The notes under the pieces were generated by a model. The model saw only the letters and a list, made by a program, of their open reading frames with translations, had not been told where the DNA came from and made no database searches. From assembly GCA_002348365.1 (NCBI GenBank), contig DEBC01000137.1, forward strand, positions 21,821 through 85,820: a stretch of DNA of 64,000 nt, written 5' to 3'. Below, piece after piece: positions 7,572 through 35,467 of this stretch. Source of the stretch: Alphaproteobacteria bacterium UBA2966 (GTDB taxonomy: Bacteria; Pseudomonadota; Alphaproteobacteria; UBA2966). Within the stretch, counting starts at the first letter, position 1, and the number at the start of each line of letters is the position of its first letter. Position numbers and translations under genes: made by a program.

Positions 7572-7585
7572 GGGAGATCACGGCG

Positions 7586-14447: not shown

Positions 14448-14475
14448 ACCGTTCGGTCGAAATGCGGCGCGTTCG

Positions 14476-15919: not shown

Positions 15920-15926
15920 CGCCCAA

Positions 15927-17113: not shown

Positions 17114-17180
17114 GTGGCATGTCGAATGAAGGCCAGGCCGGGATTCAACCGAATGCACCCGGCGTGCGGCAGCATGAGGA

Positions 17181-18146: not shown

Positions 18147-19090
18147 CCACCAACCTCATAATTTACGTTGGTGCCCCGGAAGGATATGAAGCCGTGCAAG
18201 ACGTGATGCATTGCTTTGGAAAGACGGAGCACGTGCCCGCACTTCAGAAGACAATTGAATCCCATCTGGAGCAAGCGACGGCGCTATTGGATGCTTCGAT
18301 GAAAGTTCGAATATCAGACGGGATGGTACGGAGCGCTCCTGAGCTTCGTGTGATCAGCTGCGCCACGACCGGCTCGGATCATATCGAACGGGCAGAGCTG
18401 AACAGGCGCAAGATTCCTGTGCACACCCTTCGCGAGGATCCCGAGCTGCTGCAGAACATCACACCGGCTGCCGAACTCTCTTGGGCGCTCGTGCTGGCCT
18501 CGGCTCGACGACTCGCGCCGGCGCTCATGCACACCGCAGGGGGCCAATGGAATCGGGAGGAGTTTCCCGGTCTCATGCTCAACGGCAGACAACTCGGTCT
18601 CATCGGATGCGGACGTATCGGGGGCTGGATGTCACGATACGGTCACGCATTCGGCATGAATGTAGTCGGTTATGATCCCCATATCGATCCGTGGCCAGCG
18701 GGTATTGAGCGGCTGACCATCGAGCAAGTGTTTGAGACCTCGGACGTGATCAGCATCCACGTTCATTTATCGGAGGAGACCCGGGGTCTGGTTTCGCCTG
18801 ATTTGATCCAACGCGTTAAGCGGGGCGCAATCCTTATCAACACTTCGCGCGGCGGCATTGCCGACGAAACATCCATTCTTCGGGCACTTGAATCCGGCCA
18901 GCTGGGAGCGGCCGGTCTCGATGTACTCGAAGGCGAGCCCGATATCGGTGATCATCCGCTCGTGGCCTACGCACGCAAGCATGACAATCTGCTCATCACG
19001 CCACATTGCGGTGGATTCAGCCCGGACGCCGTCCGCAGGGTCTGCCATCGCGCCGCCGAGAAAATTCTTCCCTATCTGGACAACGATTGA
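18143..19090 (+). CDS. D-isomer-specific 2-hydroxyacid dehydrogenase family protein.
   Basis: …LGLIGCGRIGGWMS… NAD motif, …LINTSRGGIADE…, …ITPHCGG… The start is uncertain (TTG 18143, overlapping the upstream stop). The first ~45 codons of ORF 18002 are read-through. Confidence 0.65.
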   Translation: MTTNLIIYVGAPEGYEAVQDVMHCFGKTEHVPALQKTIESHLEQATALLDASMKVRISDGMVRSAPELRVISCATTGSDHIERAELNRRKIPVHTLREDPELLQNITPAAELSWALVLASARRLAPALMHTAGGQWNREEFPGLMLNGRQLGLIGCGRIGGWMSRYGHAFGMNVVGYDPHIDPWPAGIERLTIEQVFETSDVISIHVHLSEETRGLVSPDLIQRVKRGAILINTSRGGIADETSILRALESGQLGAAGLDVLEGEPDIGDHPLVAYARKHDNLLITPHCGGFSPDAVRRVCHRAAEKILPYLDND

Positions 19091-20628
19091 CCCGGCCCGT
19101 CATTCCTTCGATTGAATCGCTCGCAGACGAGCTCACGGACAAGGCTGTGGGGCCCGTGTTCGGGATTCCCGGCGGGGGACCGAGCCTTGAGCTTCTTGAC
19201 GCTCTGGAGCGACGAGGGGTCGCATATGTCCGTACGCATTTCGAAGGGTGTGCGGCCCTCATGGCGGGGACGATGGGGAGGTTGAGTGGGGAACCGGGGA
19301 TGTGCCTCTCGATCAAGGGCCCCGGCTTGGCCAACATGGTTTCGGGTTTGGCCGCGAGCGCGCTGGAGGGGTTTCCATTGCTGGCCGTCTGCGAGGCCTT
19401 TCCGCGCGATACCGACTGGACAGTTCGACACAAAGGCATGGATCATCCGGGTCTGACGTCGGCTGTGAGCAAGGGTTGTTTCGGAATCGCAGGGAAAAGA
19501 GTCGTCGAAAACGCCGTCGCACTTGCGAAGGCAGAAGTTCCCGGGCCCGTCGTTCTCAATCTGAATGACGAACAGGCCCCACCAACGCCGGTCACTCCTG
19601 AAACGAGTGTCCTCGGCCCGGTGATCAAACAAATCGAAATAGCTAAGAGGCCCGTTGTCATTGTCGGTTCACTGGCTGCCCGTTCCGTGTGGGCTAGCCG
19701 ACTGGAGAGTTTGGCGGTGCCGGTCTTTGTCACCGCCGCGGCTAAAGGTGCACTCGATGAAGGCCTGCGATATTCCGCTGGTGTCTTCACGGGAGTCGGG
19801 CTGGAGCACACCCCGGAGGCCAAAATCGTTCCACAGTCTGACCTGGTAATTGGCCTAGGGTTGCGCGCAGGAGAAGTGTTGGCAGCCAAGCCATTCGAAT
19901 GCTCCGCTGTGAACGTCGATACCATTGGATCCGATCAAGGTTTCGAGTTCCTGGCATCGGCTCAGTGCCAAATTCTGGATTCCGTGTTCGACGCGCTGGA
20001 CGCGTTCGATTGGGGGTCGGATCTTGTCGCTGACGTCGTCACGAGCCTGGACAACAGACTTCGATCGAGCGGCTTTCTCCCCGCACACGCGCTTGCCGCG
20101 ATCCAGCGCCGCTTTGCGGGACAGGTCCGAGGCGTGTTCGATACGGGAAACTTCTGCACAATTGCCGAGCATATTTGGCGCCCCGCGCACCCGAACCACT
20201 GTTTGATGTCGGGAAAGGGCCGCTATATGGGTACCGCGCTACCGATGGCAATCGCGGCCGCCGAATATGACCCCTCGGTTCCAACGGTCGCGGTGCTTGG
20301 CGACGGGGGCATCGGCATGTTTCTGGCTGAAGCCAGACTAGCCGTGGAGCGAACCCTCCCGCTCCTGATCGTTCTCATGTCCGATGGTGGTTTTGGATCC
20401 GTCCGCGGCCGCGCGCTGAAGGATGGCCTCACCCAAGCCCCCTTGATCATCAACGATCCATCCTGGCTGATCGTGCTGGAGGGCATGGGCATACCGGGTG
20501 TCGCCGTCAACAAGGAAGAAGACCTGAGCACCGCGCTTGAGGCCTGGGTCCCGGATTCCGGTCCCAGTTACGTGGAGATTTCTTTCGATCCGGACGCCTA
20601 TCAGGAAATGATCATCGGCATTCGATAG
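19087..20628 (+). CDS. Thiamine-diphosphate-dependent enzyme (acetolactate-synthase/benzoylformate-decarboxylase-like fold).
   Basis: N-terminal …VGPVFGIPGG… Pyr domain and C-terminal ThDP-binding …LGDGGIGMFLAEARLAVE…LMSDGGFGSV… (GDG-X24-NN-like). The TTG start at 19087 overlaps the upstream stop. Confidence 0.7.
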   Translation: MTRPVIPSIESLADELTDKAVGPVFGIPGGGPSLELLDALERRGVAYVRTHFEGCAALMAGTMGRLSGEPGMCLSIKGPGLANMVSGLAASALEGFPLLAVCEAFPRDTDWTVRHKGMDHPGLTSAVSKGCFGIAGKRVVENAVALAKAEVPGPVVLNLNDEQAPPTPVTPETSVLGPVIKQIEIAKRPVVIVGSLAARSVWASRLESLAVPVFVTAAAKGALDEGLRYSAGVFTGVGLEHTPEAKIVPQSDLVIGLGLRAGEVLAAKPFECSAVNVDTIGSDQGFEFLASAQCQILDSVFDALDAFDWGSDLVADVVTSLDNRLRSSGFLPAHALAAIQRRFAGQVRGVFDTGNFCTIAEHIWRPAHPNHCLMSGKGRYMGTALPMAIAAAEYDPSVPTVAVLGDGGIGMFLAEARLAVERTLPLLIVLMSDGGFGSVRGRALKDGLTQAPLIINDPSWLIVLEGMGIPGVAVNKEEDLSTALEAWVPDSGPSYVEISFDPDAYQEMIIGIR

Positions 20629-20639
20629 ATTCGACCGTC

Positions 20640-22178
20640 GTGCTTTTCAACTCATTCCATTTCATTCTCGGCTTCTTGCCAGTCGTGATTCTGTTGACAT
20701 GGTTTGCTACCTCGCGAATTGGGCGAACCACGGCTATTGGAAGTTTGATCTTGGCTTCACTGTTCTTCTACGGATGGTGGAACCCGTCTTTCCTGGCCTT
20801 GTTGGTCGCCTCTGTATCCGGGAACTACGCTCTTGGCGTTGTGCTCAGAACCTTGGCACGGCAGAAGCGACATCTGGTGGCGCGCATCGTCCTGATCACG
20901 GGTATCAGCGCCAATCTGGGTACGATCGGATACTTCAAGTATGCCGGGTTCCTTACCGAAATTATTTCGTCGCTGATTGCCATCGACTGGACTCTGGGTG
21001 CCATCGTCCTGCCGCTCGGAATTTCATTTTTTACGTTTCAACAGATCGCCTACATCGTCGACTGCGCGCACGAAAACGTCGATTCACACGGCTTCTTTGA
21101 CTATGCCCTGTTCGTCACATTCTTCCCTCAGCTGATTGCGGGACCGATCGTCTATCACCGTGACATACTGCCCCAAATTCGCAGTGGTGAGGCCGCATTC
21201 ATGTTCCGCACCTCGGACTTGGGAATAGGCGCCAAGATCTTCGCCTTCGGCCTGATCAAGAAAGTCGTCCTTGCGGACGGCATGGCCGTCTACGCCACGC
21301 CCGTGTTCGAAGCGGCTGACGCCGGCGCTACGCTGACCTTCATTGAGGCATGGGGCGGCGCGCTGGCTTACACACTCCAGCTATACTTCGATTTCAGCGG
21401 TTATTCGGACATGGCAATCGGACTCGGCCGGATGTTCGGACTGCGCCTGCCGATTAACTTTCGGGCACCCTACAAGGCGACGAGCATCATCGACTTCTGG
21501 CGCCGGTGGCACATCACGCTTTCGATGTTCCTGCGCAACTACCTCTACATCCCTCTCGGCGGAAACCGGCACGGCAAGTCGCGACGTTGGATCAATCTCA
21601 TGATCACAATGCTGCTGGGGGGACTGTGGCACGGAGCCGGATGGACCTTCGTCGTCTGGGGTGGGCTGCACGGTGCTTATCTCTGCCTCAACCATTTGTG
21701 GCGTCACGTCGCAAGGCGCGCCGGAATCAATCTGAAGGCATCGGCTGCCGGGCGGGTCGTCAGTTGGGGGGTGACGTTTCTCGCCGTCGTCATTGCATGG
21801 GTCTTTTTTCGAGCTGAGACATTCCACGGAGCGATCGGCGTGCTCTACGGTATGGCTGGGCTCAACGGCATTATTCTACCGGAGGCCTGGGCGGGTCGCC
21901 TCGCCTCTCTCCCCGCAGCACTGACGGTTTTCGGTCTCGGACCGACACCATATTTCACTGGTGCCGTGCAGGTGCTGATGACCGGATTGATCCTGATGAT
22001 CGCACTCTTTGCCCCAACGACCCAGCAATGGGTGAGGTGGCAATTTGATGGCGGCAGCACAGTCGGGCGATGGCGGTTGGGGACTGTCGTCGCAACAGGT
22101 TTCGGACTAATCGGCGGTTACACCATGATCAGGCTCTTTGTGGGTGGATACAGTGAATTCCTCTACTTCCAGTTCTAA
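20640..22178 (+). CDS. MBOAT-family membrane-bound O-acyltransferase (AlgI/DltB/PatA-like).
   Basis: ~10 TM helices plus the conserved His region …WRRWHITLSMFLRNYLYIPLGGNR…. Confidence 0.85.
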   Translation: MLFNSFHFILGFLPVVILLTWFATSRIGRTTAIGSLILASLFFYGWWNPSFLALLVASVSGNYALGVVLRTLARQKRHLVARIVLITGISANLGTIGYFKYAGFLTEIISSLIAIDWTLGAIVLPLGISFFTFQQIAYIVDCAHENVDSHGFFDYALFVTFFPQLIAGPIVYHRDILPQIRSGEAAFMFRTSDLGIGAKIFAFGLIKKVVLADGMAVYATPVFEAADAGATLTFIEAWGGALAYTLQLYFDFSGYSDMAIGLGRMFGLRLPINFRAPYKATSIIDFWRRWHITLSMFLRNYLYIPLGGNRHGKSRRWINLMITMLLGGLWHGAGWTFVVWGGLHGAYLCLNHLWRHVARRAGINLKASAAGRVVSWGVTFLAVVIAWVFFRAETFHGAIGVLYGMAGLNGIILPEAWAGRLASLPAALTVFGLGPTPYFTGAVQVLMTGLILMIALFAPTTQQWVRWQFDGGSTVGRWRLGTVVATGFGLIGGYTMIRLFVGGYSEFLYFQF

Positions 22179-23124
22179 TACTGAACTCGAAACCGATACC
22201 GGAGCTGAGCCGACCGCTCACTCACCGCGCTACACGCTCTTATGGCTGGCAACCCTAGCGGCAACTTTCGCCATCTTCCTCGGCACCAGCGAAGCGTTGA
22301 TCCGCCTTCATGTGGAGCCAAACGATCTCCTGCTGAAACATGCATCCCTCATGTCATCGTCTACCTCCGCGAATGCCGTTTTTGGCGATTCACATGCCTC
22401 TCTCGGCTTCACAGGTCAGCCGGAATTCGTCAATCTAGCGTTTCCCGGGGAAAACCTTCGCACAATCGCCAGCAAGGTTGAACACTACTTTTCCGAAAGA
22501 TCGCCCGGCAAAGTGATATTCCAATTGGGCCCGCATCAATTCTCGGAACGGCGTAATAGCGAGTTCGGCCTCGACTACCGAAACGCCGACTGGAAACCGG
22601 GGGCATCTCGGGCGCTGTCGGCCTGGTACCGCCCAAAAGTGCTGAATTTCTGGAAGGTGTACCTCACAGGGGACGAGTTTCGCGTAAACCGCGCGTTGCA
22701 GACGGACGGGGCCCAGACTGTCGACACAAGTCTCGCCGAAATGCCGCCCAGTGACAGACGTACGCAGGCGGAACGTACCGTGACAGACCAGCTTCCAGCG
22801 GCAGAACCGGCGACCAGCACGGCCGCGCAAACCGCAAAGTCCATACTGTCTGCTTTGATCAGTCGCGGTGCGGAAGTATGCCTGGTGACATTTCCGGTCG
22901 CTCCGGATCAGGTCGCCTACGCAAAGCGTCATCCGGAAATCGCAGCGACTCGGCGTTACATCGACGAACTCGCACATAGCCTGACGCTCAAGCGGGTGGA
23001 CTACTGGAGCGCCATCCAAGATTACGCACTGTTCACGAACTCCGATCATTTGAACGCCCTTGGCGCGAGCCAGCTAGCCTCAATGGCTGTCGCTGATTGC
23101 GGCTTTGGCCAGACGGAGGGGTGA
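22138..23124 (+). CDS. SGNH/GDSL-type hydrolase-fold protein, the likely MBOAT partner (AlgJ/AlgX/PatB-like polysaccharide O-acetyltransferase).
   Basis: N-terminal TM anchor, then …NAVFGDSHASLGF… (GDS(H) block I). It overlaps the 3' end of the MBOAT gene. The start could be TTG 22138, GTG 22144 or GTG 22153. Confidence 0.5.
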   Translation: MWVDTVNSSTSSSNTELETDTGAEPTAHSPRYTLLWLATLAATFAIFLGTSEALIRLHVEPNDLLLKHASLMSSSTSANAVFGDSHASLGFTGQPEFVNLAFPGENLRTIASKVEHYFSERSPGKVIFQLGPHQFSERRNSEFGLDYRNADWKPGASRALSAWYRPKVLNFWKVYLTGDEFRVNRALQTDGAQTVDTSLAEMPPSDRRTQAERTVTDQLPAAEPATSTAAQTAKSILSALISRGAEVCLVTFPVAPDQVAYAKRHPEIAATRRYIDELAHSLTLKRVDYWSAIQDYALFTNSDHLNALGASQLASMAVADCGFGQTEG

Positions 23125-23164
23125 ACAAGTTCATGCCTCTCTCATGTAATCGCCGCGGGGCACT

Positions 23165-23899
23165 GTGACCTACCAAGGTCTCGCAGTGCTGGCGGTTGTC
23201 CCTGCGCGCGGCGGATCAAAATCGATTCCCCGGAAGAATCTGCGCGTGGTTCACGGCAACTCCCTGATCGGCCATGCGGCGAGTATTTGCCGACAACTGG
23301 ATTGGATCGATGTCGCGGTTATCTCAACCGATGATGAGGAGATCGCAGAGGAGGCCGCACGCCATGGCCTGGAAAAACCATTCCTGAGACCTCCAGAACT
23401 GGCGGATGACACTGCACTGTCCATTGACGCCTGGCGCCATGCTCTGCTGACGTCCGAAGATCACTACAACCAACAATTCGATCTGACCGTCCTGCTCGAA
23501 CCGACGAGCCCGCTTCGTGTTCCCGAAGATGTTGAGCGGGCCGTCGCAGAAATTGCCAGTGGCAAGTTTCAAGCAGCCGCAACCGTGAGCAAAACCTCGC
23601 CGTCCTACACGCCCCACAAGACCCTCGTGCGGTCGAATCACGGCCGCCTGAAGTTTTACCTTGAGGATGGAGGCCAGTATTCCATCCGCCAGCGCATCCC
23701 GGACTACTATCATCGCAATGGCATCTGCTATGCGCTGCGTCGTGAGGCGCTGCTCGATCCTGACAATCGCTATATTGTGGATTACGACTGCTGCGCGGTC
23801 GTCATCGACCGGCCGTTGGTGAATATTGACGAGCCCTTTGATTTGGAACTCGCGGAATGGCTGATGGCGCGCGAAGCCAGGGAAGGCAGTTTCGAATGA
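23165..23899 (+). CDS. Acylneuraminate (nonulosonic acid) cytidylyltransferase, CMP-sugar synthetase copy 1.
   Basis: …AVVPARGGSKSIPRKN… CTP_transf_3 signature. Confidence 0.8.
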   Translation: MTYQGLAVLAVVPARGGSKSIPRKNLRVVHGNSLIGHAASICRQLDWIDVAVISTDDEEIAEEAARHGLEKPFLRPPELADDTALSIDAWRHALLTSEDHYNQQFDLTVLLEPTSPLRVPEDVERAVAEIASGKFQAAATVSKTSPSYTPHKTLVRSNHGRLKFYLEDGGQYSIRQRIPDYYHRNGICYALRREALLDPDNRYIVDYDCCAVVIDRPLVNIDEPFDLELAEWLMAREAREGSFE

Positions 23900-24726
23900 C
23901 GACCACACCGATCTTCATCGGCGGCCTTTTCAAGTCTGGAACCAGCCTGCTCAGGGCGATGTTGGGCCAACATTCCCACATCGCGGCCGGCCTCGAGACA
24001 TATTGGTTTGAGGTCGATTGGGACGCCCGATTGGGTCGTGACGGGGAGCCACTCGCCGACTATGTCGAGCGCATGGCGGGGTTTTTCGACATCGAGATCG
24101 AGTGGGCGCATTCAGCGGCGGAAAAGGCGGAAAGCGCTTCTGCATTCGTAACATCTATTCTGAACGAGTTCGCAATCCGGCAAGGCAAACCTCGCTGGGC
24201 CGAAAAAACGCCCGGCAACATTCTTCATGTGTCACGCATCAAGGAGAACTGGCCGGGGGCGAAAATCATTCACATCATTCGCGATCCCCGGGACGTTTAT
24301 GCCTCGCTCCGACAGGCCAAAAAATGGGATTCAGTCGAAATGTTCGGAAACCTCTGGTGTGACTTCATGGGTGCGGGAACCAGAGCAGCCAGTGTCGTTC
24401 ATGAAATGCGCTACGAAGATTTGACCCTGACCCCCGAGGAGTGCATGCGGAAGGCCATACAGTTCGTCGGCGAGCCCTGGGAACCAGGCGTCGCGGAGTT
24501 CTCGGGAAGATCAGAGGACTACGACAAAGTTATGACTTTATCCGGGCATGCGAGTTCAACACTGGACCGCCTGCGCCATCCCCTCACCAACAACCGGATT
24601 GGTATCTGGCGTGATCTGATTGCTGCAGACGAACTCAAGTCGCTCCGCGACTTCGTCGCGGATTGTGGCCTGGGTGATGCCTATGACCATATCACAGAAG
24701 CCGCGGTCACTTCGACTTCACGATGA
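23896..24726 (+). CDS. PAPS-dependent sulfotransferase, copy 1.
   Basis: 5'-PSB loop …GGLFKSGTSLL… and 3'-PB motif …IIHIIRDPRDVYASL… The ATGA start/stop overlap is at 23896-23899. Confidence 0.75.
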   Translation: MTTTPIFIGGLFKSGTSLLRAMLGQHSHIAAGLETYWFEVDWDARLGRDGEPLADYVERMAGFFDIEIEWAHSAAEKAESASAFVTSILNEFAIRQGKPRWAEKTPGNILHVSRIKENWPGAKIIHIIRDPRDVYASLRQAKKWDSVEMFGNLWCDFMGAGTRAASVVHEMRYEDLTLTPEECMRKAIQFVGEPWEPGVAEFSGRSEDYDKVMTLSGHASSTLDRLRHPLTNNRIGIWRDLIAADELKSLRDFVADCGLGDAYDHITEAAVTSTSR

Positions 24727-24750
24727 TCGCGCTGGAAAAACAGGCCTGCC

Positions 24751-25752
24751 TTGGCAAATAATTTCTCTGATACAGCCAGTCCCGCCCTTCTGTTCGTCAA
24801 CTACCATTACATTCGGGACCCGGCGCAGTACATCTATCCGGGGATCCACCCTATAGCGCCGGATGACTTCACGGCACAGGTCGATTGGCTGTCCGATCGT
24901 TTTCATATGGCATCACCGGAAGAGGCGCAGGCTTACATCTCGGGGCAGGCGAGCTTGCCATCCGACAGCGTGGTTCTGACTTTCGATGACGGCCTGATGG
25001 ATCAGTACCGGATTGCGGTCGACGTCTTGGACCCACGTGGCATCAAGGGCATCTTTTTCGTGACATCGCAGCCCTTGACCGAAGGGCACGCCAACACCCT
25101 CCAGAAGACGCACTGGCTCCGCGCGATGACGGAGCCTGGAGAGTTTCAAGTTCAGCTCCTCGACATGCTTCAGGCGGAGTGGCGAATGGCGATGGATGAA
25201 CCGGCGTCGCAAGCTGCTGCGGAGGGAATCTATATCTACGACGACCCTGACGTCGGTCGCGTCAAGTACCTCATCAATTTCCTTCTACCCGAATCGCTGA
25301 TGGATGAACTGTCCAGCGGGATGCTCGCCGATCGGGGTGTCGCTGAAGCTGACTTCTGCACCGACATGTACATGTCCGAGAGAAACGTTCAGGAACTTCA
25401 CCGCAGCGGACACATAATCGGCGCTCACGGGCACAGACACATACCATTCACGCGCATTCCCGACGGTGATACGACGGAAATCGAGACGAACACAGCATTT
25501 CTCTCCTCTCTCGTCGGCAAACAGCCGGAATGGGTGTCCTATCCCTTCGGACGGGACTGGGCGATTCCTGACGATCCGGAGTCGTTCTGTAGACATCATG
25601 GATTCAGGTTTGGTCTCACCCTCACCCAAGGGTGGAATGTCGGAACGGAGTCGCCTTACCTGCTCAAGCGCGTCAACACCAATGAAGTCGAGATGACGGC
25701 CCAGGAACGCCTTCAAATTCATTCACAAGAAAACGCTGCTGGAGTCGGTTGA
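24751..25752 (+). CDS. Polysaccharide deacetylase (NodB-homology, CE4).
   Basis: …VVLTFDDGLMDQY… (TFDDG motif) and later His motifs (…IIGAHGHRH…). The TTG start is at 24751. Confidence 0.7.
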   Translation: MANNFSDTASPALLFVNYHYIRDPAQYIYPGIHPIAPDDFTAQVDWLSDRFHMASPEEAQAYISGQASLPSDSVVLTFDDGLMDQYRIAVDVLDPRGIKGIFFVTSQPLTEGHANTLQKTHWLRAMTEPGEFQVQLLDMLQAEWRMAMDEPASQAAAEGIYIYDDPDVGRVKYLINFLLPESLMDELSSGMLADRGVAEADFCTDMYMSERNVQELHRSGHIIGAHGHRHIPFTRIPDGDTTEIETNTAFLSSLVGKQPEWVSYPFGRDWAIPDDPESFCRHHGFRFGLTLTQGWNVGTESPYLLKRVNTNEVEMTAQERLQIHSQENAAGVG

Positions 25753-25770
25753 TCGTCGAAAAGGCTTGCC

Positions 25771-26700
25771 ATGACCACACAAGATTCGATTGATCTCCTC
25801 GACATTGCACTGGTTGGTTTTGCCAAGCGGATGGGAGCACCCAATAAGCTCGCCCATGGCCTGGTGAAAGCCCGGCGATCGGTGGTGCACGTGGGCGACG
25901 TAATGCGTCGCCGCCGCCAAGGTGCGGCCCTCTTGGAAAACTCCAACTGGGGAACCTTTATTGATCAGGCTTCGGGATATCGAACGTTCAACCCCAACAC
26001 GTTCCCCATGGCGAGTGCTGCGGTGGCCGCCAGTCTGCGCATATTCGAGTCTAAGGGCGGGATTGAAGGGCTGACCCGAGGCAAGAAACCGTTCTTTACG
26101 AACATTCTCGACGCCCACGACGTTGAAGAACATCCCGAATTACTGGACCTGATCCTGAGTCCTGAAATCGTCGAATCCGTGACCGGTTATTTCGGAACGC
26201 TACCCCGACTCAAATGTATGGGCGTTTTCGTTTCGGCCGCCAATGATTCGACGGAGTCGAGCCAACTATTTCATGTCGACAACGACGACTTCCGACAGAT
26301 CAAATGCTTCATCAATCTGGTGGAAACGGGGCCGGGCCAGGGGCCCTTCACGTTCCTCCCCGCGCAGTCAACGGCTACGGCGCTTAGTGCGCTTGGTCAT
26401 TCCTGGGGTTTTGGCAGGTTCTCCGACGAAGAAGTGGCCAGCGTCACCAACATGTCGGAGTCAATTGCGCTAACGGGCGGCATGGGAAGCGGAGCTTTTG
26501 TCGACACGTCACGGTGTCTGCACTACGGGAGCCGGGCGCGGCAGGGATACCGGCTGGTTCTGATGTTCAATTTTATGCCCTTCCCTGATCTCAAGATGAA
26601 CAAGGGCATGTTCGACATGCCCGGCATGCCGCTGTTTCGGATTCCGGCGTCCCGGTACGAATGCGATCCGCTGCGTCGAACCTTGCTCGGGGTATCGTAA
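25771..26700 (+). CDS. Hypothetical protein, possibly a PhyH-like Fe(II)/2-oxoglutarate-dependent oxygenase.
   Basis: H-x-D (…LFHVDND…) followed ~80 aa later by …RCLHYGSRARQGYR… (His + Arg), which is consistent with a 2OG-oxygenase facial triad. This is weak evidence. Confidence 0.45.
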   Translation: MTTQDSIDLLDIALVGFAKRMGAPNKLAHGLVKARRSVVHVGDVMRRRRQGAALLENSNWGTFIDQASGYRTFNPNTFPMASAAVAASLRIFESKGGIEGLTRGKKPFFTNILDAHDVEEHPELLDLILSPEIVESVTGYFGTLPRLKCMGVFVSAANDSTESSQLFHVDNDDFRQIKCFINLVETGPGQGPFTFLPAQSTATALSALGHSWGFGRFSDEEVASVTNMSESIALTGGMGSGAFVDTSRCLHYGSRARQGYRLVLMFNFMPFPDLKMNKGMFDMPGMPLFRIPASRYECDPLRRTLLGVS

Positions 26701-26710
26701 AGACCAGGAA

Positions 26711-27661
26711 TCAAACGGTCTCGGACGCCACGATGGCGACACCCATGGCAATCTTGGCTGGAATATCCTTGCGCACATAGGTCGGCTTCAACCCGAACCG
26801 TGGCAGGTCATCGACGGCAGCGTCAAAATAGGCATGCGCTCGAATACGATGCTGGCGCATACTTTCCGCATTGCAATCCGCAAATGGCTCCGTCATCACG
26901 ATCGCTCTTCGGGCCACCCGGCGAATCTCCCGCAAAGCTGAATGCTGTACTGCCTTCATCTGCTCAAGAGCGAGGCATGTGAAGACAAGATCGACCTGGC
27001 CGTCCTGGAAAGGCAACTCTGCGGCGCTCGCCTGTTGAACGTGCACACGCTTGAACGCAGACGTGTCTCGCGGTGGCAGGGGTGAGTACGAACTCAACAC
27101 TTCTGGAAGCGTGCTTTCCTCCTGAAATGTTTGCACCGCGGCAGCGCCTTGGGCCGTGAGTTCGATCCCCGAGAACTCGATGTCGGGAAATCTCGACGCC
27201 AACACGAAAAGGTTCACGCCGGTTCCGCAACCTGCCTCCAATACGGATACCGGCTTTAGGGCTTCGATCAGACGCATGAGAAAGAGGAGATAGATTCGCT
27301 TGAGGCCATTCGCGTCCATCAAGAATCCATGATTGCGCCAAATAACTGCGCTGGAGCCGTCCTTGGGCGATAAAATGTCTAGAGCAGTTCGGCCGCCCCA
27401 TTGGCGACCATACTCCTTCTTTACATGCCCCTGGCCGCGGGCTGGCAACCCGACAAAGGTTCGCAACCGGCTCTTGCGGTATGCACGTCGCCACTTCCTC
27501 TCTTGATCGTCAACAAGCTTGCGCCATTCGGGATCGTCAGCATAGAAACGTCGGCGAATATATGGTGCGATGAGTGCCTCGATCTCATCGTCTCCAACCT
27601 CGATCGCCAGTTCCAATGCGTTCGCCTCGTCGACTCGATCAGTGGCGGCCTTGACAGACAT
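26711..27661 (-). CDS. Class I SAM-dependent methyltransferase.
   Basis: …VLEAGCGTGVNL… motif I and …VDLVFTCLALEQM…. Confidence 0.75.
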   Translation of the reverse strand: MSVKAATDRVDEANALELAIEVGDDEIEALIAPYIRRRFYADDPEWRKLVDDQERKWRRAYRKSRLRTFVGLPARGQGHVKKEYGRQWGGRTALDILSPKDGSSAVIWRNHGFLMDANGLKRIYLLFLMRLIEALKPVSVLEAGCGTGVNLFVLASRFPDIEFSGIELTAQGAAAVQTFQEESTLPEVLSSYSPLPPRDTSAFKRVHVQQASAAELPFQDGQVDLVFTCLALEQMKAVQHSALREIRRVARRAIVMTEPFADCNAESMRQHRIRAHAYFDAAVDDLPRFGLKPTYVRKDIPAKIAMGVAIVASETV

Positions 27662-28220
27662 AATAAATTTTTTGGTACCCCCGGCCCTTTCTGAGAACGG
27701 GGAAAAGGTACATCAGGCCGGCAATGATCGGGGAAAAAACCGTGCTGGGTGCCGAGAGCGCGCCGTACCTCTCGATCTTGATCGTATCGAATGAACGCTT
27801 CAGCAGAGCGAATATGTCCTCTTCGAACGAAAAGGCTCGCTTGCTGATGTTGAAAATGAGAACTCCTCCCGGGCGAACCATACGTATCAGGGCCTCAGTT
27901 CCCGCAATGGTGTCGGCAACGTCGAAATAGCGATTGTTCATGACCTGTACACAGAGAACAAAGTCACCGGTTACATCCGACGTCTCTTCGAGCTTCGCGC
28001 ATATCGTCTCGGCGTCGGGATGCTTCGCTTGTGCAGCGGCAAGCCGTTCACGATCAACATCGATACCGATATATCGTTTCGTCCGAAACCAGCGCTTGTT
28101 TTCCATGTGGCCGCAGCCGGCATCAATCCCGATCTCCCGGTCCTCGCTGAGACCCATGTCCCGCATCAAGAAGTACCAGAGCAGTTGCTTTGCGGGTTTT
28201 TCAGAGTATCGAAAACTCAA
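27639..28220 (-). CDS. Class I SAM-dependent methyltransferase (Methyltransf_11/25-like).
   Basis: …IGIDAGCGHMEN… motif I and …VRPGGVLIF… The TTG start is at 28220. The 3' end overlaps the next methyltransferase gene start by 23 nt. Confidence 0.65.
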   Translation of the reverse strand: MSFRYSEKPAKQLLWYFLMRDMGLSEDREIGIDAGCGHMENKRWFRTKRYIGIDVDRERLAAAQAKHPDAETICAKLEETSDVTGDFVLCVQVMNNRYFDVADTIAGTEALIRMVRPGGVLIFNISKRAFSFEEDIFALLKRSFDTIKIERYGALSAPSTVFSPIIAGLMYLFPVLRKGRGYQKIYYVCQGRH

Positions 28221-28292
28221 TGAACGGCCCTCGAGTGAAAAGTTGCTGTTATCATAGGATCAACGGAACCACCACATGAAGCGGAATTCGAT

Positions 28293-29687
28293 TTGAGTAC
28301 CCCAACATATGCCCAACGCATCAAGCGTAAGGTCGGCACCACTATCCTGGGTCCTATCCTGACCCGGCTGGCGGCGGAGGGCAGGGCGCCGCTCGTAGGC
28401 AAGCTCATCCGCAGCCAGCTTGTTACGCTGAAGCAGCCACAAGTCCACGAGTCGCAGGCGATTAGCACGCTCATTCTTCCCAAGCCTGGATTCTCTGAAG
28501 ATATCCAAGCCAGCCTCGGTCGCGACGGTCGCTTTCGCATCGTCTCACTCGATCGTACCTATACCAAGTTCGTCTATAGAGCGTTCCTCCCGAAAACGGT
28601 CGATGACAACAACTATCGCTCCGCTCCACCGGAAACCGCCGACAAGAAGCTCCAATTGCGAGATTTCTGGCAAGCCGCTTGGCCCCACGTCAGCCGTGGA
28701 CAGATTGATGTCCTGTTGACCGGGAATTTCAGTTATCACGCCGAACAGGAACTCACGGCGGCGCTTGAGGTGCATGGCACACCGGTCGTCGCGTTGCACA
28801 AGGAATGCCTGAAAAGCCCAGCGCTCGAGACGTTCTACGAACACGTCTACCGTGAACGGAAGATCCCATTCCAGGGCAGTTTCATCTCGACCTACAATGA
28901 GATCGAGCGTGACATTCAGGTTCGTGCCGGGACCGTTTCCCCCGACAGGGTGGTCGTGTCCGGCATGGCGCGTCTCGATAAAATACATCACTGGCGGGAG
29001 AAGTTTGGAGGTACGATCCGTCGAACCGGTGAGCGGCCTACCGTATTGTTCATGTCGTTCAATGCGCGCACCGGCGCCCCTTTGATTTCGCGGAAGCTTC
29101 CGGGACGGAGGGAGATTCTCGACGAGGCTCAGGAAGCGGTCGGTTGGGACAGGCTGGTCGTTGAATGTCATGCGGCGATGGTCGACCTCGCCCGGCAAGA
29201 GCCGGATATCGACGTTGTCATCAAAGCCAAGGATCACGCCCGGGCTTTGGCGGTGATCGAGGAAAGCTTTGGACATGATTTCAAGACACCTGCGAATCTG
29301 AAGATCATCTGCGGCGGCGATCCGTTCTCGCTCATAACGCAGGCAGACGTTCTTTGCGGATTTAACAGCACCAGCCTGTTCGAGGCATTGGCGGCCAACG
29401 TCCCGATCGTCTCACCGCATTTTGTGGAAGCGGCGGCGGAGGATACGAAGGGCTATGTCATTGACCTCGGCGACGCGGCAGAACGGGCGCACAGCCGACA
29501 GGAGTTGATTGCTCGCCTCGCCGCGCGCGCCCGATCCACGCACGCATCGGGCCATGCAACGACCCTGGCTGACGCACAACTTCGGGCGCTCGATCACTGG
29601 CTCGGCAATGCCGATGGAAAAGCGGGTGAGCGCGTTGCATCGCTTGTCAGCGAAATCGTCCGGTCTGAGCAGCGAGCGGCTGCCTGA
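28293..29687 (+). CDS. Putative GT-B-like glycosyltransferase, tandem paralogue 1 of 3.
   Basis: Colinear with paralogues 2 and 3 (…VLLTGNFSYHAEQELTAALEVHGTPVVALHKECLK… and …QADVLCGFNSTSLFEALAANVPIVSPHF…). The TTG start is at 28293. Confidence 0.55.
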   Translation: MSTPTYAQRIKRKVGTTILGPILTRLAAEGRAPLVGKLIRSQLVTLKQPQVHESQAISTLILPKPGFSEDIQASLGRDGRFRIVSLDRTYTKFVYRAFLPKTVDDNNYRSAPPETADKKLQLRDFWQAAWPHVSRGQIDVLLTGNFSYHAEQELTAALEVHGTPVVALHKECLKSPALETFYEHVYRERKIPFQGSFISTYNEIERDIQVRAGTVSPDRVVVSGMARLDKIHHWREKFGGTIRRTGERPTVLFMSFNARTGAPLISRKLPGRREILDEAQEAVGWDRLVVECHAAMVDLARQEPDIDVVIKAKDHARALAVIEESFGHDFKTPANLKIICGGDPFSLITQADVLCGFNSTSLFEALAANVPIVSPHFVEAAAEDTKGYVIDLGDAAERAHSRQELIARLAARARSTHASGHATTLADAQLRALDHWLGNADGKAGERVASLVSEIVRSEQRAAA

Positions 29688-29703
29688 TTCCCAGCACTCA
29701 CCC

Positions 29704-31098
29704 ATGAACGACAAGATCCGCCGCCACGTTTGGTGGTTCGCGTTTCGCACTGTCGCGCGTCTCAACTTGGCGCGTGCTGCTGCCTGGCTCATGGTTCGCG
29801 CCTTGGGGGGTGCTCAAACTGGATCTTCAGGTCAGGATGCAAAGAAGCTTCTGCTGTTGTCCAAACGAGGCCTGTTCGAGGATGCCGCGTCGGCTTTTGA
29901 AGGCGATCAGAGATTCGAGCCCTGGTATCTCGACATGGTCGAGATCAAACCTTTCAAGGCAATGGTCTCAGCCTTCCTGCCCCCCGAAATAGATGATTTC
30001 AACTATCTCTCAGATGACTCAGAAGTGGAGGCGGGCAAACGCGCGTACCGTGATTTCGCGGTTCAGGTGCTGAAGCACTTCCTCGCCCAAATGCCCTTTG
30101 ATGCAGTTCTGACAGCGAGCTTTTCCTACTATGCGGAACGAGAAGTGGCGGCTGCTTTCGAGCAATTGGGTGTGCCGTTCATCGCGTTACATAAGGAAAA
30201 CCTGAAAACCCCCGGCATCTTCAAATTCTACGAAGAGGTCTATCGCACGCGTCGCGGTCCGTTCCATGGCAGACGAATTCTCGTCTACAACGGAATTGAG
30301 AAGAATCTGCAGGTTGCGGCCGGCGTCGCGCCGGAAGGGAACATCACCGTGACCGGAATGCCCCGGCTCGACCGAATACATGAATGGCGTCAAGCGCAGG
30401 CCGGGCTGCGACCTGACACGAGTGGTCAAGCGACTACCGCTCATCAGGCGCTCTTCTTCGCGTTCGGACCGAAGACAGGGCTGCCACGCATGGCTCGCAA
30501 GCTCGGGTTCGGGATGCCGGAAGGCCTCGAGCAATTCGGTGACGAGCGGGATCAATTTTCCTGGGATGAGCTTGCCCGTTCGTATCACCGGGCAGCCGTC
30601 GAAGTCGCTCGACAAATGCCCGACATTCGAGTGATCGTGAAGGCCAAGCCGGTTCCCTTCGAAGTCGCAGCGATTCGAGAACTTCTTGGTGATGGCGATG
30701 ACCTTCCCGAGAACCTCACTCTGATCTCAAGTGGCGACCCGATGGAATTGATCCTTAAGAGCAATGTCGTATGCGGATTTCGGACGACCGCGCTCCTTGA
30801 GGTCATCGCGGCGGGTAAACCCCTCATCGTTCCTCATTTTGCCGAAGCCGCGACACCACAGCTGTCTGAATTCATTTTCGATGTTGAGTCGGCCGCAGAG
30901 TATGCCGACTCCGAAGAGGACATTGTCCGCAGAGTCTGCCATCACCTGACAAACAGCGAAGGGACAAGGGTCGCGCTTGAGTCGAGTGAGATGACCGTTC
31001 TCGAGAAGTGGACGGGAAATGTAGACGGCAAGTCGGGTGCGCGGGTGGCCAATGCGGTTCACGCAGAGATTTTGGGCGCACCGGTGGAGCACGACTGA
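29704..31098 (+). CDS. Putative GT-B-like glycosyltransferase, tandem paralogue 2 of 3.
   Basis: …AVLTASFSYYAEREVAAAFEQLGVPFIALHKENLK… and …KSNVVCGFRTTALLEVIAAGKPLIVPHF… The ATG at 29704 follows the paralogue-1 stop by 16 nt. Confidence 0.55.
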   Translation: MNDKIRRHVWWFAFRTVARLNLARAAAWLMVRALGGAQTGSSGQDAKKLLLLSKRGLFEDAASAFEGDQRFEPWYLDMVEIKPFKAMVSAFLPPEIDDFNYLSDDSEVEAGKRAYRDFAVQVLKHFLAQMPFDAVLTASFSYYAEREVAAAFEQLGVPFIALHKENLKTPGIFKFYEEVYRTRRGPFHGRRILVYNGIEKNLQVAAGVAPEGNITVTGMPRLDRIHEWRQAQAGLRPDTSGQATTAHQALFFAFGPKTGLPRMARKLGFGMPEGLEQFGDERDQFSWDELARSYHRAAVEVARQMPDIRVIVKAKPVPFEVAAIRELLGDGDDLPENLTLISSGDPMELILKSNVVCGFRTTALLEVIAAGKPLIVPHFAEAATPQLSEFIFDVESAAEYADSEEDIVRRVCHHLTNSEGTRVALESSEMTVLEKWTGNVDGKSGARVANAVHAEILGAPVEHD

Positions 31099-31102
31099 AC
31101 CT

Positions 31103-32467
31103 ATGTCATCACGACCGTGGCTTCTTCTCCCCATCGAAACCAAGCACCGGGAATTTTATGGCAAGATATTGTTGTCACTCGCCGCAGCCGAACGGGGTTT
31201 CGAAGTACTGCTCGGCGAACAGAACGCCATGCTTTCCCAACTCGATAACCTCCCCCAAGGCATATATCTCGACAAGAGCGTCGGCCGCACGAAGACCAAG
31301 TATTTCAAGAGACTTGATGCGCGAGGTTGCCGGATCGTGGCGTGGTGCGAAGAGGGCCTCGTCTATCGCGACCGCGACGCCTATCTGCACGAGCGTGTTT
31401 CCAACGCATCTCTGGCGCTAGCCAACAGGTTCTTCGCCTGGGGCGATGTGCAGGCCAATGATATTCACAAGCAAGCCCCAGAGGCGGATGCCAAGGTGCG
31501 GATCACCGGCAACCCACGCTTCGACATGTTGCGACCCGAATTCCGCAGTGTCTTCACGCCCGCGGCCGACAAGATTCGACAGTGCTACGGTCCATACATC
31601 CTCATCAATTCGAACTTCAGCCGGTACAACCACTTCATGGGCTACGACTTCTGGATCGAGGCCCTAAAACAGCGCGGCACGATCACGAACGATGAACAGC
31701 TCGCCTTCTACCATCGCTGGCGCGACTTCCTGGGAAAGGTCTTTCACGGCTTCATCCGTGTCATGCCGGCTCTCTCATCTGCATTCCCCGATCGGACGTT
31801 ACTGGTACGGCCACATCCGTCTGAAGATCACGCTACCTGGCTCCGCGAAACGGCTGCACTCAACAATGTCACCGTTGTGCATGAGGACAGCGCAATCCCC
31901 TGGATCGCAGGTGCCGATGCCGTCATACACAACAGCTGCACCACCGGTCTTGAGGCGTACCTTCTGGGTATTCCTGTTGCTGCATTCCGGCCTGCTGTCG
32001 ATGAGACATTTGATTCCCACCTCCCGAATGCGGTCAGTCACGAAGCGGTGGACGGCGAGGGCCTTATTGAAACCCTGCGCGAGCTCCTGGCGGGCACCGC
32101 GACCCCGCCGCCTTCCGCACAATCGGAGGTGAATAGATATGTAGCCGCGCTCGATGGCTCACTCGCGGGAGACCGTGTCGCGGATGCGTTGATCGAAATC
32201 TCTTTACGCTGTGAACCCCAGAAAATGGGACCGATACGACGCGCGAGAATTGCCCGGGAAAACACTGTCTCGGCGCTTAAGCCTATGCTCAGACGGATAC
32301 GCCGCAGCCATAAAGCGACGTCCTACGCGAAGCAAAAGTTTCCCGGAATTGAGCTCTCAGAGGTCGAACACGCCATAAACCAATTGAGAGACGTCTCGGG
32401 TCGCTTCGCCGGCATCACTTCGACGCGTTCACCGTTCCGTCACTGTTTTCGGATTTGCAAGACCTAA
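31103..32467 (+). CDS. Putative sialyltransferase-like glycosyltransferase, tandem paralogue 3 of 3.
   Basis: Contains …IVAWCEEGLVYRD… (D/E-D/E-G-type motif) and …LLVRPHPSEDH… (HP motif) ~160 aa apart. This matches the spacing of the two bacterial sialyltransferase motifs. The C-terminus …GADAVIHNSCTTGLEAYLLGIPV… parallels paralogues 1 and 2. Confidence 0.5.
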   Translation: MSSRPWLLLPIETKHREFYGKILLSLAAAERGFEVLLGEQNAMLSQLDNLPQGIYLDKSVGRTKTKYFKRLDARGCRIVAWCEEGLVYRDRDAYLHERVSNASLALANRFFAWGDVQANDIHKQAPEADAKVRITGNPRFDMLRPEFRSVFTPAADKIRQCYGPYILINSNFSRYNHFMGYDFWIEALKQRGTITNDEQLAFYHRWRDFLGKVFHGFIRVMPALSSAFPDRTLLVRPHPSEDHATWLRETAALNNVTVVHEDSAIPWIAGADAVIHNSCTTGLEAYLLGIPVAAFRPAVDETFDSHLPNAVSHEAVDGEGLIETLRELLAGTATPPPSAQSEVNRYVAALDGSLAGDRVADALIEISLRCEPQKMGPIRRARIARENTVSALKPMLRRIRRSHKATSYAKQKFPGIELSEVEHAINQLRDVSGRFAGITSTRSPFRHCFRICKT

Positions 32468-32486
32468 CTGGGAACAGGTACCCCAA

Positions 32487-33656
32487 TCAGCCTGCCTCTA
32501 CACCACCGCCCACCCATTTGATACGCGGCTCCATCGTGTCGAGATTCACGTTGTCCCGGTACCGTTCGACACGATCCATCATCGATCCCACGACCTCGCT
32601 GGTCAGAAGATGGGGTTGCAGCCCCAGGTCTGTCAGCTTGGAATGTTTGGCATTGTAGTAGTGCGACTCCTGCTCCACCCGCGGGTTCGCCACGTTCTCG
32701 ATTACGACATCCAGGCCACGCGTCCTGCCGGTCTCTTGCACGAGGTTGGCGAGATTGAGGATTGAATACTCCTCGGTGAACTGGTTGAAGACACGGAACT
32801 CTCCGGGCTTAGCCGGATTCCGCGCCGCCAACTCGACGCATTGAAGGGTATCGCGAATATTCAGAATTCCCCGGGTTTGACCGCCCTTCCCATACACGGA
32901 CAGCGGTTGCCCCATCACGGCCTGAACGACGAAACGGTTCAGCACTGTCCCGAACACATGGTCGTAGTGAAAGGATGTCGCCAACTCATCGTCGAGAAGC
33001 GTTTCCGTCGTGTCGATGCCGTAGACCACGCCCTGGTTCAGATCGGTCGCACGGACACCCCAGATTCGACAGGTAAACGCGATGTTGTTCGAATCATGAA
33101 CCTTTGACAGGTGATAAAAGCTGTGCGGCTTCTTCGGGTAGAGCACGGTGTCGGTCCGCCCGTTGTGGGTGACCGTCAGATAACCTTCCTCTATGTCGAT
33201 GTTAGGGGTGCCGTACTCACCCATGCTCCCGAGCTTGACCAGGTGGGCGTCCGGGCAATGACGTCGAAGCGCGAACAGAACGTTCAACGTGCCGGTCACA
33301 TTGCCCATTTGGGTCAGGACAGCTGTAGTCCGGCCCTGCATGGAATAGGGGGCCGAAGGCTGTTCGGCGTAATGGATGATGACTTCGGGCTGCGCGGCCT
33401 GAAACAGGTTGTAAACGAACCGGTGATTGGTCAGATCGCCGACGCGCAACTCAATGGTTTTACCCGTTAGTTCTTTCCATCGACGGACTCGGCGATGCAA
33501 CGTGGGCACGGGCGCGATCGGCTCGACACCTTCTTCCAGCTCCCACTGGCGCTTGGCGAAATTGTCCGCCACCCAAACTTCGTCCCCCGCAGAAGAGAAA
33601 TGCATGGCGGTGGGCCAACCGAGATAGCCGTCACCACCCAAGACCAATACGCGCAT
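32487..33656 (-). CDS. sqdB: UDP-sulfoquinovose synthase (SqdB/SQD1/Agl3 family).
   Basis: MRVLVLGGDGYLGWPTAMHFS… and …HYAEQPSAPYSM…, …HLVKLGSMGEYGTPNIDIEEGY…, …FYHLSKVHDSNNIAFTCRIWGVRATDLNQGVVYG…, …LNRFVVQAVMGQPLSVYGKGGQTRG…IRDTLQCVELA… These blocks match SQD1/SqdB closely. Confidence 0.8.
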   Translation of the reverse strand: MRVLVLGGDGYLGWPTAMHFSSAGDEVWVADNFAKRQWELEEGVEPIAPVPTLHRRVRRWKELTGKTIELRVGDLTNHRFVYNLFQAAQPEVIIHYAEQPSAPYSMQGRTTAVLTQMGNVTGTLNVLFALRRHCPDAHLVKLGSMGEYGTPNIDIEEGYLTVTHNGRTDTVLYPKKPHSFYHLSKVHDSNNIAFTCRIWGVRATDLNQGVVYGIDTTETLLDDELATSFHYDHVFGTVLNRFVVQAVMGQPLSVYGKGGQTRGILNIRDTLQCVELAARNPAKPGEFRVFNQFTEEYSILNLANLVQETGRTRGLDVVIENVANPRVEQESHYYNAKHSKLTDLGLQPHLLTSEVVGSMMDRVERYRDNVNLDTMEPRIKWVGGGVEAG

Positions 33657-33748
33657 GAGAATTCCGAGCTAGTAGTTTGCTGTCGTAGGTGACAGGAATG
33701 CCGTCTGCAACGGCGGCGGCGTCCTTGTCTCATGAATGGAGCCTGGCA

Positions 33749-35466: not shown

Positions 35467-35467
35467 T

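Follow-up and report, generated by a model that had tools for sequence, protein, structure and literature searches.

We have analysed a 64,000-nucleotide stretch of DNA (the window) from the alphaproteobacterial metagenome-assembled genome (MAG) UBA2966, whose proteins are recorded at NCBI as hypothetical proteins of an 'Alphaproteobacteria bacterium' MAG. The window carries a surface-glycan locus at approximately 12.7-53.1 kb, flanked by the housekeeping genes rsmB and rpe on one side and purH on the other, and identical copies occur on Tara Oceans and other marine metagenome contigs. Central to it are adjacent genes for a sulfotransferase of the type that uses 3'-phosphoadenosine 5'-phosphosulfate (PAPS), here called ST1, and for a metal-dependent deacetylase of carbohydrate esterase family 4 (CE4). 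Our finding is that ST1, CE4 and a cytidylyltransferase form the conserved core of a probable, uncharacterised NeuC/NeuB-type pathway for nonulosonic acids (NulOs, or sialic-acid-type sugars) that recurs across phyla, and are not ad hoc decorations.

All sizeable open reading frames (ORFs) of the window were scanned against Pfam and NCBIfam. The segment at 23896-28220, which a first-pass annotation had singled out as a dense decoration module, holds five genes: ST1, CE4, a 309-aa ORF and two minus-strand class I S-adenosylmethionine (SAM) methyltransferases. Upstream of it lie genes for a helix-turn-helix (HTH) regulator, a NusG-like protein, a zinc-ribbon methyltransferase, a D-2-hydroxyacid dehydrogenase, a thiamine diphosphate (ThDP) enzyme, an MBOAT protein, a membrane-anchored protein of 326 aa and the cytidylyltransferase. 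Downstream, three relatives of TIGR04396/BFO_1060 of about 460 aa are followed by a second NeuB/NeuC/cytidylyltransferase set with an SQD1 homologue and by an MsbA/PglK-like ABC exporter. After the exporter come NeuB_a, NeuC_a and a Gfo/Idh/MocA oxidoreductase, then a CDP-alcohol phosphatidyltransferase, and then a second sulfotransferase (ST2), a fourth methyltransferase, a GT4 glycosyltransferase and a Wzy_C ligase-like protein. Beyond the Wzy_C gene there is an inserted ECF-type biotin transporter, followed by a WbpL-like initiating transferase and a PglF-like dehydratase.

ST1 and its deacetylase neighbour

ST1 (23896-24726, plus strand) is a protein of 276 aa that matches Pfam Sulfotransfer_3 with 110 bits (cut-off 27; E 2e-31). 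Its 5'-phosphosulfate-binding motif, FKSGTS, occupies residues 12-17, and in an alignment of 22 homologues (47-68% identity) S14, G15 and T16 are invariant while K13 is at least 90% conserved. In the 3'-phosphate-binding motif, IIRDPRDVYAS, residues R129, P131, D133 and S137 are invariant, and the GLET motif and RWxEKTPGN are invariant or nearly so. The corresponding motifs of ST2 (43953-44786, plus strand) are conserved in eight orthologues, and both proteins score above their Pfam cut-offs. The first-pass annotation had placed two PAPS sulfotransferases at these positions, and this stands; judged by motifs and family matches, ST1 and ST2 are both bona fide sulfotransferases. Homologues of ST1 fall into at least 120 clusters at 47-98% identity among the matches listed.

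The closest solved relatives of ST1 by sequence are the tyrosylprotein sulfotransferases TPST1 and TPST2 (E 1e-8, approximately 20% identity; by fold, E 1e-10). Foldseek searches with an AlphaFold2 (AF2) model of ST1 (pLDDT 93) returned TPST1/2 and the sulfotransferase (ST) domains of CurM and OLS as the closest structures, at E 1e-10 to 3e-9. Residue E34 aligns with the glutamate of the TPST 'GEET' segment, which we take to be the TPST catalytic base, and this glutamate is invariant among the homologues. These likenesses, and the conserved glutamate in particular, would fit a RaxST- or TPST-like enzyme that sulfates tyrosine in a protein or peptide and stands in a glycan locus by chance. The surroundings of the gene argue otherwise, with no sulfated-peptide gene candidate among the annotated neighbours and a NulO-biosynthesis context in nearly every locus (30 of the 31 loci with full flanks, defined below), and we regard tyrosine sulfation as extremely improbable.

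The best TM-scores of the model were obtained with the OLS and CurM domains (0.65-0.66, rmsd ~5 Å), and retinol dehydratase and LGS1 were also among the structure matches. Enzymes of the CurM/OLS or retinol dehydratase type suggest an 'activating' role for ST1, in which sulfate would be the leaving group for an elimination, deoxygenation or cyclisation, perhaps one involving an amine freed by CE4, and the final sugar would be sulfate-free. Against such a role, TPSTs match ST1 equally well by E-value, polyketide synthase, acyl carrier protein and thioesterase genes are absent from its context, and the chemistry would be without precedent in sugar pathways; we consider it quite improbable.

CE4 (24751-25752, plus strand) is a protein of 333 aa that matches PF01522 with 57.7 bits (cut-off 23.1). 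Across 46 sequences the motifs TFDDG, HxxxH and YPxG (YPFG here) are conserved, with D79, D80, H226, H230, H19 and R307 each at 96% or above, and the N-terminal segment aligns to PgaB, including a conserved N-terminal histidine. The gene is thus rightly called a CE4 deacetylase in the first-pass annotation. That annotation had offered either a free amine or re-acylation as the outcome. With the catalytic residues intact, a free amine is a reasonable predicted product; for re-acylation of that amine, no N-acyltransferase candidate was found in the minimal clusters described below.

Linkage to nonulosonic acid genes

Genomic contexts were first read for three ST1 homologues and then for 80 loci in one-genome-per-species representatives, using tblastn and locally built hidden Markov models. 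Linkage was counted in 48 of these loci (L011-L058; all from MAGs), in which ST1 is 34-60% identical to that of the window; 31 of them have at least 8 kb on each side and are referred to as full-flank loci. Over the 48 loci the common gene order is NeuB, NeuC, (zinc-ribbon methyltransferase), 2-hydroxyacid dehydrogenase, ThDP enzyme, Gfo oxidoreductase, cytidylyltransferase, ST1, CE4 and a TIGR04396/BFO_1060-like protein, often with an MsbA-like exporter ahead of this string and GT4, Wzy_C and WbpL-like genes after it. The cytidylyltransferase is present in 30 of the 31 full-flank loci, NeuB and NeuC in 24, and a TIGR04396-like transferase in 23.

In 38 of the 48 loci a CE4 gene is found within 1.5 kb of ST1. 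ST1 comes first in 36 pairs and CE4 in 6, and in 41 of these 42 pairs the two genes share their orientation. In the window, the stop codon of the cytidylyltransferase gene (23186-23899, plus strand; CTP_transf_3, PseF-like, 109 bits) overlaps the start of ST1 in the sequence ATGA, and the same overlap is found in two related loci (L008 and L010). The hosts include Rhodospirillaceae, Hyphomicrobiales, Xanthobacteraceae, Devosiaceae, Gammaproteobacteria, Desulfobacterales, Vicinamibacterales (Acidobacteriota), Kofleriaceae and Nitriliruptoraceae, so that the linked loci span Alpha-, Gamma- and Deltaproteobacteria, Acidobacteriota and Myxococcota. Most sulfotransferase matches below approximately 36% identity are without NulO context.

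In its smallest form, on a complete Vicinamibacterales chromosome, the cluster consists of NeuB, NeuC, ST1, CE4, two methyltransferases, the cytidylyltransferase and a transferase-like protein, with no N-acyltransferase. That minimal clusters hold little besides NulO genes bears on the question of which sugar ST1 acts on. The enzyme could act after assembly and sulfate some other sugar in the repeat unit, such as a hexose, HexNAc or uronic acid, in which case the NulO linkage would reflect a shared glycan locus and CE4 would act independently. The window does encode a TviB-like UDP-GlcNAc 6-dehydrogenase, a GT4 enzyme and a WbpL-like initiator, a few loci have ST1 without CE4, and the characterised rhizobial sulfotransferases use sugars other than NulOs. 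Around ST1, on the other hand, GT4, initiator and ligase genes are variable or missing (4-21 of the 31 full-flank loci), which contrasts with the near-constant cytidylyltransferase, and the overlap of the latter's stop codon with the ST1 start also points to the NulO. We therefore judge another sugar to be an unlikely substrate.

ORFs that join ST1 to CE4 or to the cytidylyltransferase were looked for as Rosetta-stone links, and the genes were found to be separate in all loci. The sole ORF to match two of the models lies on the minus strand of a Vicinamibacterales chromosome (OZ250139.1; L046:6402-7853), where 484 codons chain the C-terminal pieces of three proteins (ST1, the cytidylyltransferase and a TIGR04396-like protein), with no CE4 part. 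To all appearance the module was duplicated here and this copy has decayed; the intact one (L045) is approximately 26 kb away.

The MAG record titles carry soil-survey, lake, groundwater and sea sample labels, from which habitats are inferred. The first-pass annotation had considered sulfate esters and a sulfonate sugar in one bacterial glycan to be unusual outside marine, archaeal or eukaryotic systems. The source of the window is indeed marine (Tara Oceans), but the module is also present in MAGs labelled soil, lake and groundwater and so is not peculiar to the sea. All loci with an ST1 orthologue of at least 40% identity are from MAGs, and the sole cultured match (L011-L090 considered) is Peiella sedimenti, at 31% identity and without NulO context; the module seems to be confined to uncultured lineages.

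The remaining NulO genes of the window lie mostly downstream of the ST1 block. The HepA/MsbA/PglK-like ABC exporter (37946-39691), NeuB_a (39722-40777), NeuC_a (40704-42002; TIGR03568, 385 bits, cut-off 236) and the Gfo/Idh/MocA oxidoreductase (41999-43003) are all on the plus strand, and in other genomes the same genes stand directly upstream of the ST1 block. The oxidoreductase has distant matches only, among them YjhC (E 9e-7). On the upstream side are the D-2-hydroxyacid dehydrogenase (18143-19090, plus strand), found in 23 of the 31 full-flank loci, and the acetolactate-synthase-like ThDP enzyme (19087-20628, plus strand), found in 20. The best matches of the ThDP enzyme are generic catabolic acetolactate synthases (NCBIfam 167 bits, cut-off 509; PDB E 8e-32). 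A sulfonate role was considered and set aside, as the similarity to Xsc (sulfoacetaldehyde acetyltransferase) is weak and lends it no support; YerE-like sugar branching or supply of an acyl group would be speculation. No aminotransferase is found in the conserved core, and a PseB/PglF-like dehydratase is present in the window at 51181-53148.

Three paralogous proteins of approximately 460 aa (28293-29687, 29704-31098 and 31103-32467, all plus strand) are candidate NulO transferases. The third matches TIGR04396, 'surface carbohydrate biosynthesis protein', with 390 bits (cut-off 125), and the first two are divergent, with weak BFO_1060/TIGR04396 matches; across related loci the copy number is 1-3. 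BFO_1060 has been aligned with Tannerella proteins proposed as transferases of pseudaminic (Pse) or legionaminic (Leg) acid derivatives (PMC5420450). From these family relationships all three are probably NulO transferases, and their number is a hint that each repeat unit may contain several NulO residues. Two minus-strand ORFs in this region (28217-28540 and 28545-29276) were dismissed as shadow ORFs: they have no family matches, and public gene calls give the plus-strand gene at 28293-29687, which wholly encloses 28545-29276.

The second NulO set (32487-37641, minus strand) comprises NeuB_b, NeuC_b, a 2-hydroxyacid dehydrogenase, a cytidylyltransferase and, last, a full-length homologue of SQD1, the plant UDP-sulfoquinovose synthase (32487-33656, minus strand). 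It matches Arabidopsis SQD1 with E 2.5e-155 over 386 residues and keeps the active-site segment SFYHLSKVHD. No sulfolipid glycosyltransferase is annotated beside it, and SQD1-like genes adjoin NulO genes in four further loci (L007, L013, L026 and L043). A sulfonate sugar in the same cluster, as had been proposed, is therefore plausible: the SQD1 product could place sulfoquinovose in the glycan or, more speculatively, a 6-sulfo sugar could give rise to a sulfonated NulO.

Accessory genes and neighbours

The 309-aa ORF (25771-26700, plus strand) has no Pfam, NCBIfam or PDB sequence match, and 37 of its homologues are likewise without a Pfam match even at E values up to 1; its family comprises at least 453 'hypothetical' proteins with no Pfam domain. 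In this family H168-x-D170, H251 and R261 are invariant, corresponding to the HxD...H triad and the arginine that binds 2-oxoglutarate (2OG). An AF2 model (pLDDT 94) matched ColD, SnoK, SnoN, PtlH, AviO1 and EctD in Foldseek at E 3e-10 to 1e-7, with a probability of 1.00 for ColD, SnoK, PtlH and EctD, in keeping with a double-stranded beta-helix fold. These are PhyH-type 2OG/Fe(II) enzymes that tailor sugars and natural products, and the ORF is accordingly assigned, from predicted structure and invariant residues, as a 2OG/Fe(II) oxygenase of the PhyH fold, in agreement with the PhyH-like label of the first-pass annotation. It is present in 5 of the 31 full-flank loci.

Five methyltransferases had been counted in the cluster, and we find four; apart from these, the window holds just the housekeeping rsmB. 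The enzyme at 17181-18146 (plus strand; Methyltransf_23, E 4e-18; 12 of the 31 loci) carries an N-terminal Cys4 zinc ribbon, CEIC...CGNC, in which C27, C30, C60 and C63 are conserved in at least 90% of 21 orthologues, in line with the Cys4 ribbon noted earlier for one of the methyltransferases. The two minus-strand class I SAM methyltransferases are accessory: one of 316 aa (26711-27661; Methyltransf_11/25; 8 of the 31 loci) and a smaller one of 193 aa (27639-28220; Methyltransf_11, 31.5 bits) that recurs in six loci (L008, L011, L030, L034, L038 and L056). The counts for these two run from 4 to 8 of the 31 full-flank loci. The fourth, at 44783-45652, belongs with ST2.

The MBOAT assignment at 20640-22178 (plus strand) is secure, with a family match of E 9e-34, and the gene occurs in 2 of the 31 full-flank loci. 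Its partner, the membrane-anchored 326-aa protein (22144-23124, plus strand), had been read as an SGNH protein; it does have GDSHAS and SDHLN motifs and an N-terminal transmembrane helix, but no match was found in Pfam, NCBIfam or PDB. The two are likely to serve a periplasmic O-acylation after export, as accessories.

The picture of a decoration module therefore holds for part of the segment. The oxygenase, the two minus-strand methyltransferases and MBOAT with its partner are lineage-variable accessories, whereas ST1 and CE4 are conserved core. Taken for the whole region, the same idea would make it a lineage-specific pile of decoration enzymes, each working independently on a surface glycan that is already complete. 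The sparse distribution of the accessories just named, and of ST2 (5 of 31), fits this description; it fails for the ST1, CE4 and cytidylyltransferase genes, whose linkage extends across phyla, and at 40-60% protein identity a single recent horizontally transferred island is unlikely to account for them. As an explanation of the whole, a pile of this kind is very improbable.

ST2 (Sulfotransfer_1, 32 bits, cut-off 22) carries PKSGST and VRDVFD, and its orthologues conserve PKS[GA]ST, R[DN]xxD and GTRxNxGxxGRG. It is divergently paired with a CDP-alcohol phosphatidyltransferase in all eight ST2 loci; in the window this gene (42998-43819, minus strand) is weakly like inositol-phosphate lipid synthases (47 bits). 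The sub-module, which continues with the fourth methyltransferase, the GT4 enzyme (45649-46833) and the Wzy_C ligase-like protein (46830-48023), is kept in seven loci (L008, L011, L012, L017, L027, L034 and L038), and ST2 together with the CDP-alcohol transferase is found in 5 of the 31 full-flank loci. This pairing may point to another target of sulfation, distinct from the first; a phospho-alcohol substituent or a lipid anchor would be possibilities.

The ECF-type biotin transporter (BioY, a CbiQ-like T component and an ATPase; 48062-50090, minus strand) splits the Wzy_C ligase-like gene from the WbpL-like and PglF-like genes, and the latter three are contiguous in four other loci (L017, L020, L027 and L028). 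The cluster opens with genes for an HTH_24 regulator and a NusG-like protein (15927-17113, plus strand), a pair that also heads the module in five loci (L008, L011, L017, L020 and L024) and suggests a dedicated processive antiterminator, RfaH/LoaP-like, for a long operon. A promoter and terminator scan of 15500-33000 gave no enrichment relative to shuffles.

At the edge of the cluster (12753-15741), a protein with a heparinase II/III C-terminal domain lies beside the TviB-like UDP-GlcNAc 6-dehydrogenase. A lyase-fold protein of the heparinase II/III type is unexpected within a biosynthetic locus for an anionic glycan. Outside the locus, at 5980-9601 (plus strand), the gene for a TauE/SafE sulfite-exporter-family protein precedes those for an HpcH/HpaI aldolase, a D-2-hydroxyacid dehydrogenase and an aldo-keto reductase. 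These genes may handle organosulfonate or sulfite near a locus that needs both sulfite (for SQD1) and sulfate (for PAPS).

Proposed pathway and known systems

We propose that ST1 and CE4 form a two-enzyme unit within a sialic-acid-type NulO pathway, in which CE4 would de-N-acetylate the NulO and ST1 would sulfate the same residue, and we put the probability of this reading at roughly 60%. The enzyme families, their motif conservation and their linkage were read directly from the genes, and it is the substrate, the order of steps, the sulfated position and the subcellular location that we infer. NeuC_a would convert UDP-GlcNAc to ManNAc by hydrolysis and epimerisation, NeuB_a would condense ManNAc with phosphoenolpyruvate, and the cytidylyltransferase would yield the CMP-sugar, which transferases of the BFO_1060/TIGR04396 type would place onto an undecaprenyl-linked glycan. 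In the cytoplasm, CE4 would remove the 5-N-acetyl group and ST1 would transfer sulfate from PAPS onto the same residue. The MsbA/PglK-like ABC exporter would then flip the glycan, and the Wzy_C protein would ligate it. Further tailoring would come from the oxygenase, both minus-strand methyltransferases and the MBOAT pair, with MBOAT and its partner acting after export.

Placement of the two core reactions before export follows from the proteins themselves. No signal peptide or transmembrane segment was seen in ST1, CE4 or the oxygenase when the sequences were read by eye, and a soluble ST1 and CE4 with no export signal fit the cytoplasmic location of PAPS. Sulfation and de-N-acetylation would therefore be expected on the CMP-sugar or the lipid-linked glycan, at a stage before the ABC exporter flips the glycan.

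The sulfate may go to the freed amine, as in a split form of the N-deacetylase/N-sulfotransferase of heparan sulfate (NDST), or to a hydroxyl of the NulO. We lean slightly towards the amine, with O-sulfation about as likely. The tight pairing of ST1 and CE4, which occurs in either order and across phyla, together with the lack of an acyltransferase in the minimal clusters, suggests de-N-acetylation followed by N-sulfation. By analogy, the pair might be a split bacterial counterpart of NDST. Its product would be a sulfamate NulO ('N-sulfo-neuraminic acid'), a sugar that did not turn up in our literature searches; many uncultured bacteria of marine, soil and freshwater habitats would display it, and it might explain N-linked sulfate in NulO-rich extracellular polymeric substances (EPS). 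We hold this narrower idea tentatively and consider it doubtful as it stands.

Several observations weigh against the proposed pathway or parts of it. Five ST1 loci (L032, L037, L038, L043 and L052) are without CE4 in approximately 10 kb on each side (3-6 kb for L032), so that ST1 is not strictly dependent on CE4 and the case for N-sulfation is weakened. The nearest relatives of the ST1 model, TPST and the CurM/OLS ST domains, are O-sulfotransferases, which likewise speaks against N-sulfation, and the methyltransferases are also constant neighbours that could be candidate users of the freed amine. With 295 bits, NeuB_a falls short of the NCBIfam cut-off for NeuB (400 bits), which makes the exact sugar backbone uncertain. 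The ThDP enzyme, the 2-hydroxyacid dehydrogenase and the Gfo-type oxidoreductase are conserved, yet have no place in the proposed route. Family scans found no cysC, cysN or cysD for PAPS synthesis within the window. Finally, all close relatives of the module are from MAGs.

The ST1 family numbers at least 120 clusters of homologues with 47% or higher identity, spread over at least five phyla and all from uncultured organisms. It is a widespread candidate for the unknown sulfotransferases of EPS, and the minimal gene set of NeuC, NeuB, cytidylyltransferase, ST1 and CE4 is one that can be reconstituted in E. coli. If the proposed pathway is correct, bacterial glycobiology would gain a new NulO of strongly anionic character, and chemoenzymatic synthesis might be able to use the soluble bacterial sulfotransferase/deacetylase pair. 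For the abundant uncultured bacteria of sea and soil, the pathway would also help to explain surface charge, evasion of phages and grazers, or metal binding.

Searches of the literature for bacterial sulfated NulOs, for a NeuB-linked sulfotransferase and for a bacterial NDST-like pair found nothing relevant. PAPS-dependent sulfation of surface and secreted glycans is known in Alphaproteobacteria from the rhizobial enzymes NodH, NoeE, LpsS and KpsS (Mesorhizobium). These enzymes are not linked to NulO genes, and ST1 is not one of them: it falls far short of the NCBIfam NoeE equivalog model (22 bits, cut-off 500). The vertebrate sialate O-sulfotransferases are WSCD1/2, and if ST1 O-sulfates a NulO, these eukaryotic enzymes would make the same kind of product, a sulfated sialic acid; the likeness would be one of product. 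TPST1/2, with which bacterial RaxST is grouped, give ST1 its best sequence and fold matches and have in common with it the 5'-phosphosulfate- and 3'-phosphate-binding motifs and the aligned invariant glutamate, but ST1 is only approximately 20% identical to the TPSTs and its context is carbohydrate rather than peptide.

The locus resembles Neu5Ac- and legionaminic-type clusters in its NeuC, NeuB-family synthases, CTP_transf_3 cytidylyltransferases and TIGR04396/BFO_1060-type transferases. It goes beyond them in its conserved sulfotransferase, CE4, ThDP enzyme, 2-hydroxyacid dehydrogenase and Gfo-type oxidoreductase, none of which, to our knowledge, belongs to the canonical Neu5Ac, Leg or Pse pathways. 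The closest parallel to the enzyme pair itself is heparan sulfate NDST, in which a metal deacetylase and a PAPS sulfotransferase are paired and act in sequence on one N-acetylated sugar, as we propose for CE4 and ST1. NDST1 combines a (beta/alpha)7 His-His-Asp metal deacetylase with the sulfotransferase (PMC10864358). In contrast, the bacterial pair consists of two separate proteins from neighbouring genes, ST1 is TPST-like and not of the heparan sulfate sulfotransferase type, the context is CMP-NulO biosynthesis and not heparosan, and the site of action is apparently the bacterial cytoplasm as opposed to the Golgi. In NulO-rich EPS of granular sludge, more nitrous-acid-labile (N-linked) than O-linked sulfate has been found, and the responsible sulfotransferases are unknown (PMC10483923).

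The NeuC/NeuB/cytidylyltransferase core, BFO_1060-type transferases and PAPS sulfotransferases acting on rhizobial glycans are thus of kinds already known. New relative to these systems is a NulO pathway, shared across phyla, with a built-in sulfotransferase/deacetylase pair, which predicts a sulfated, de-N-acetylated sialic-acid-like sugar.

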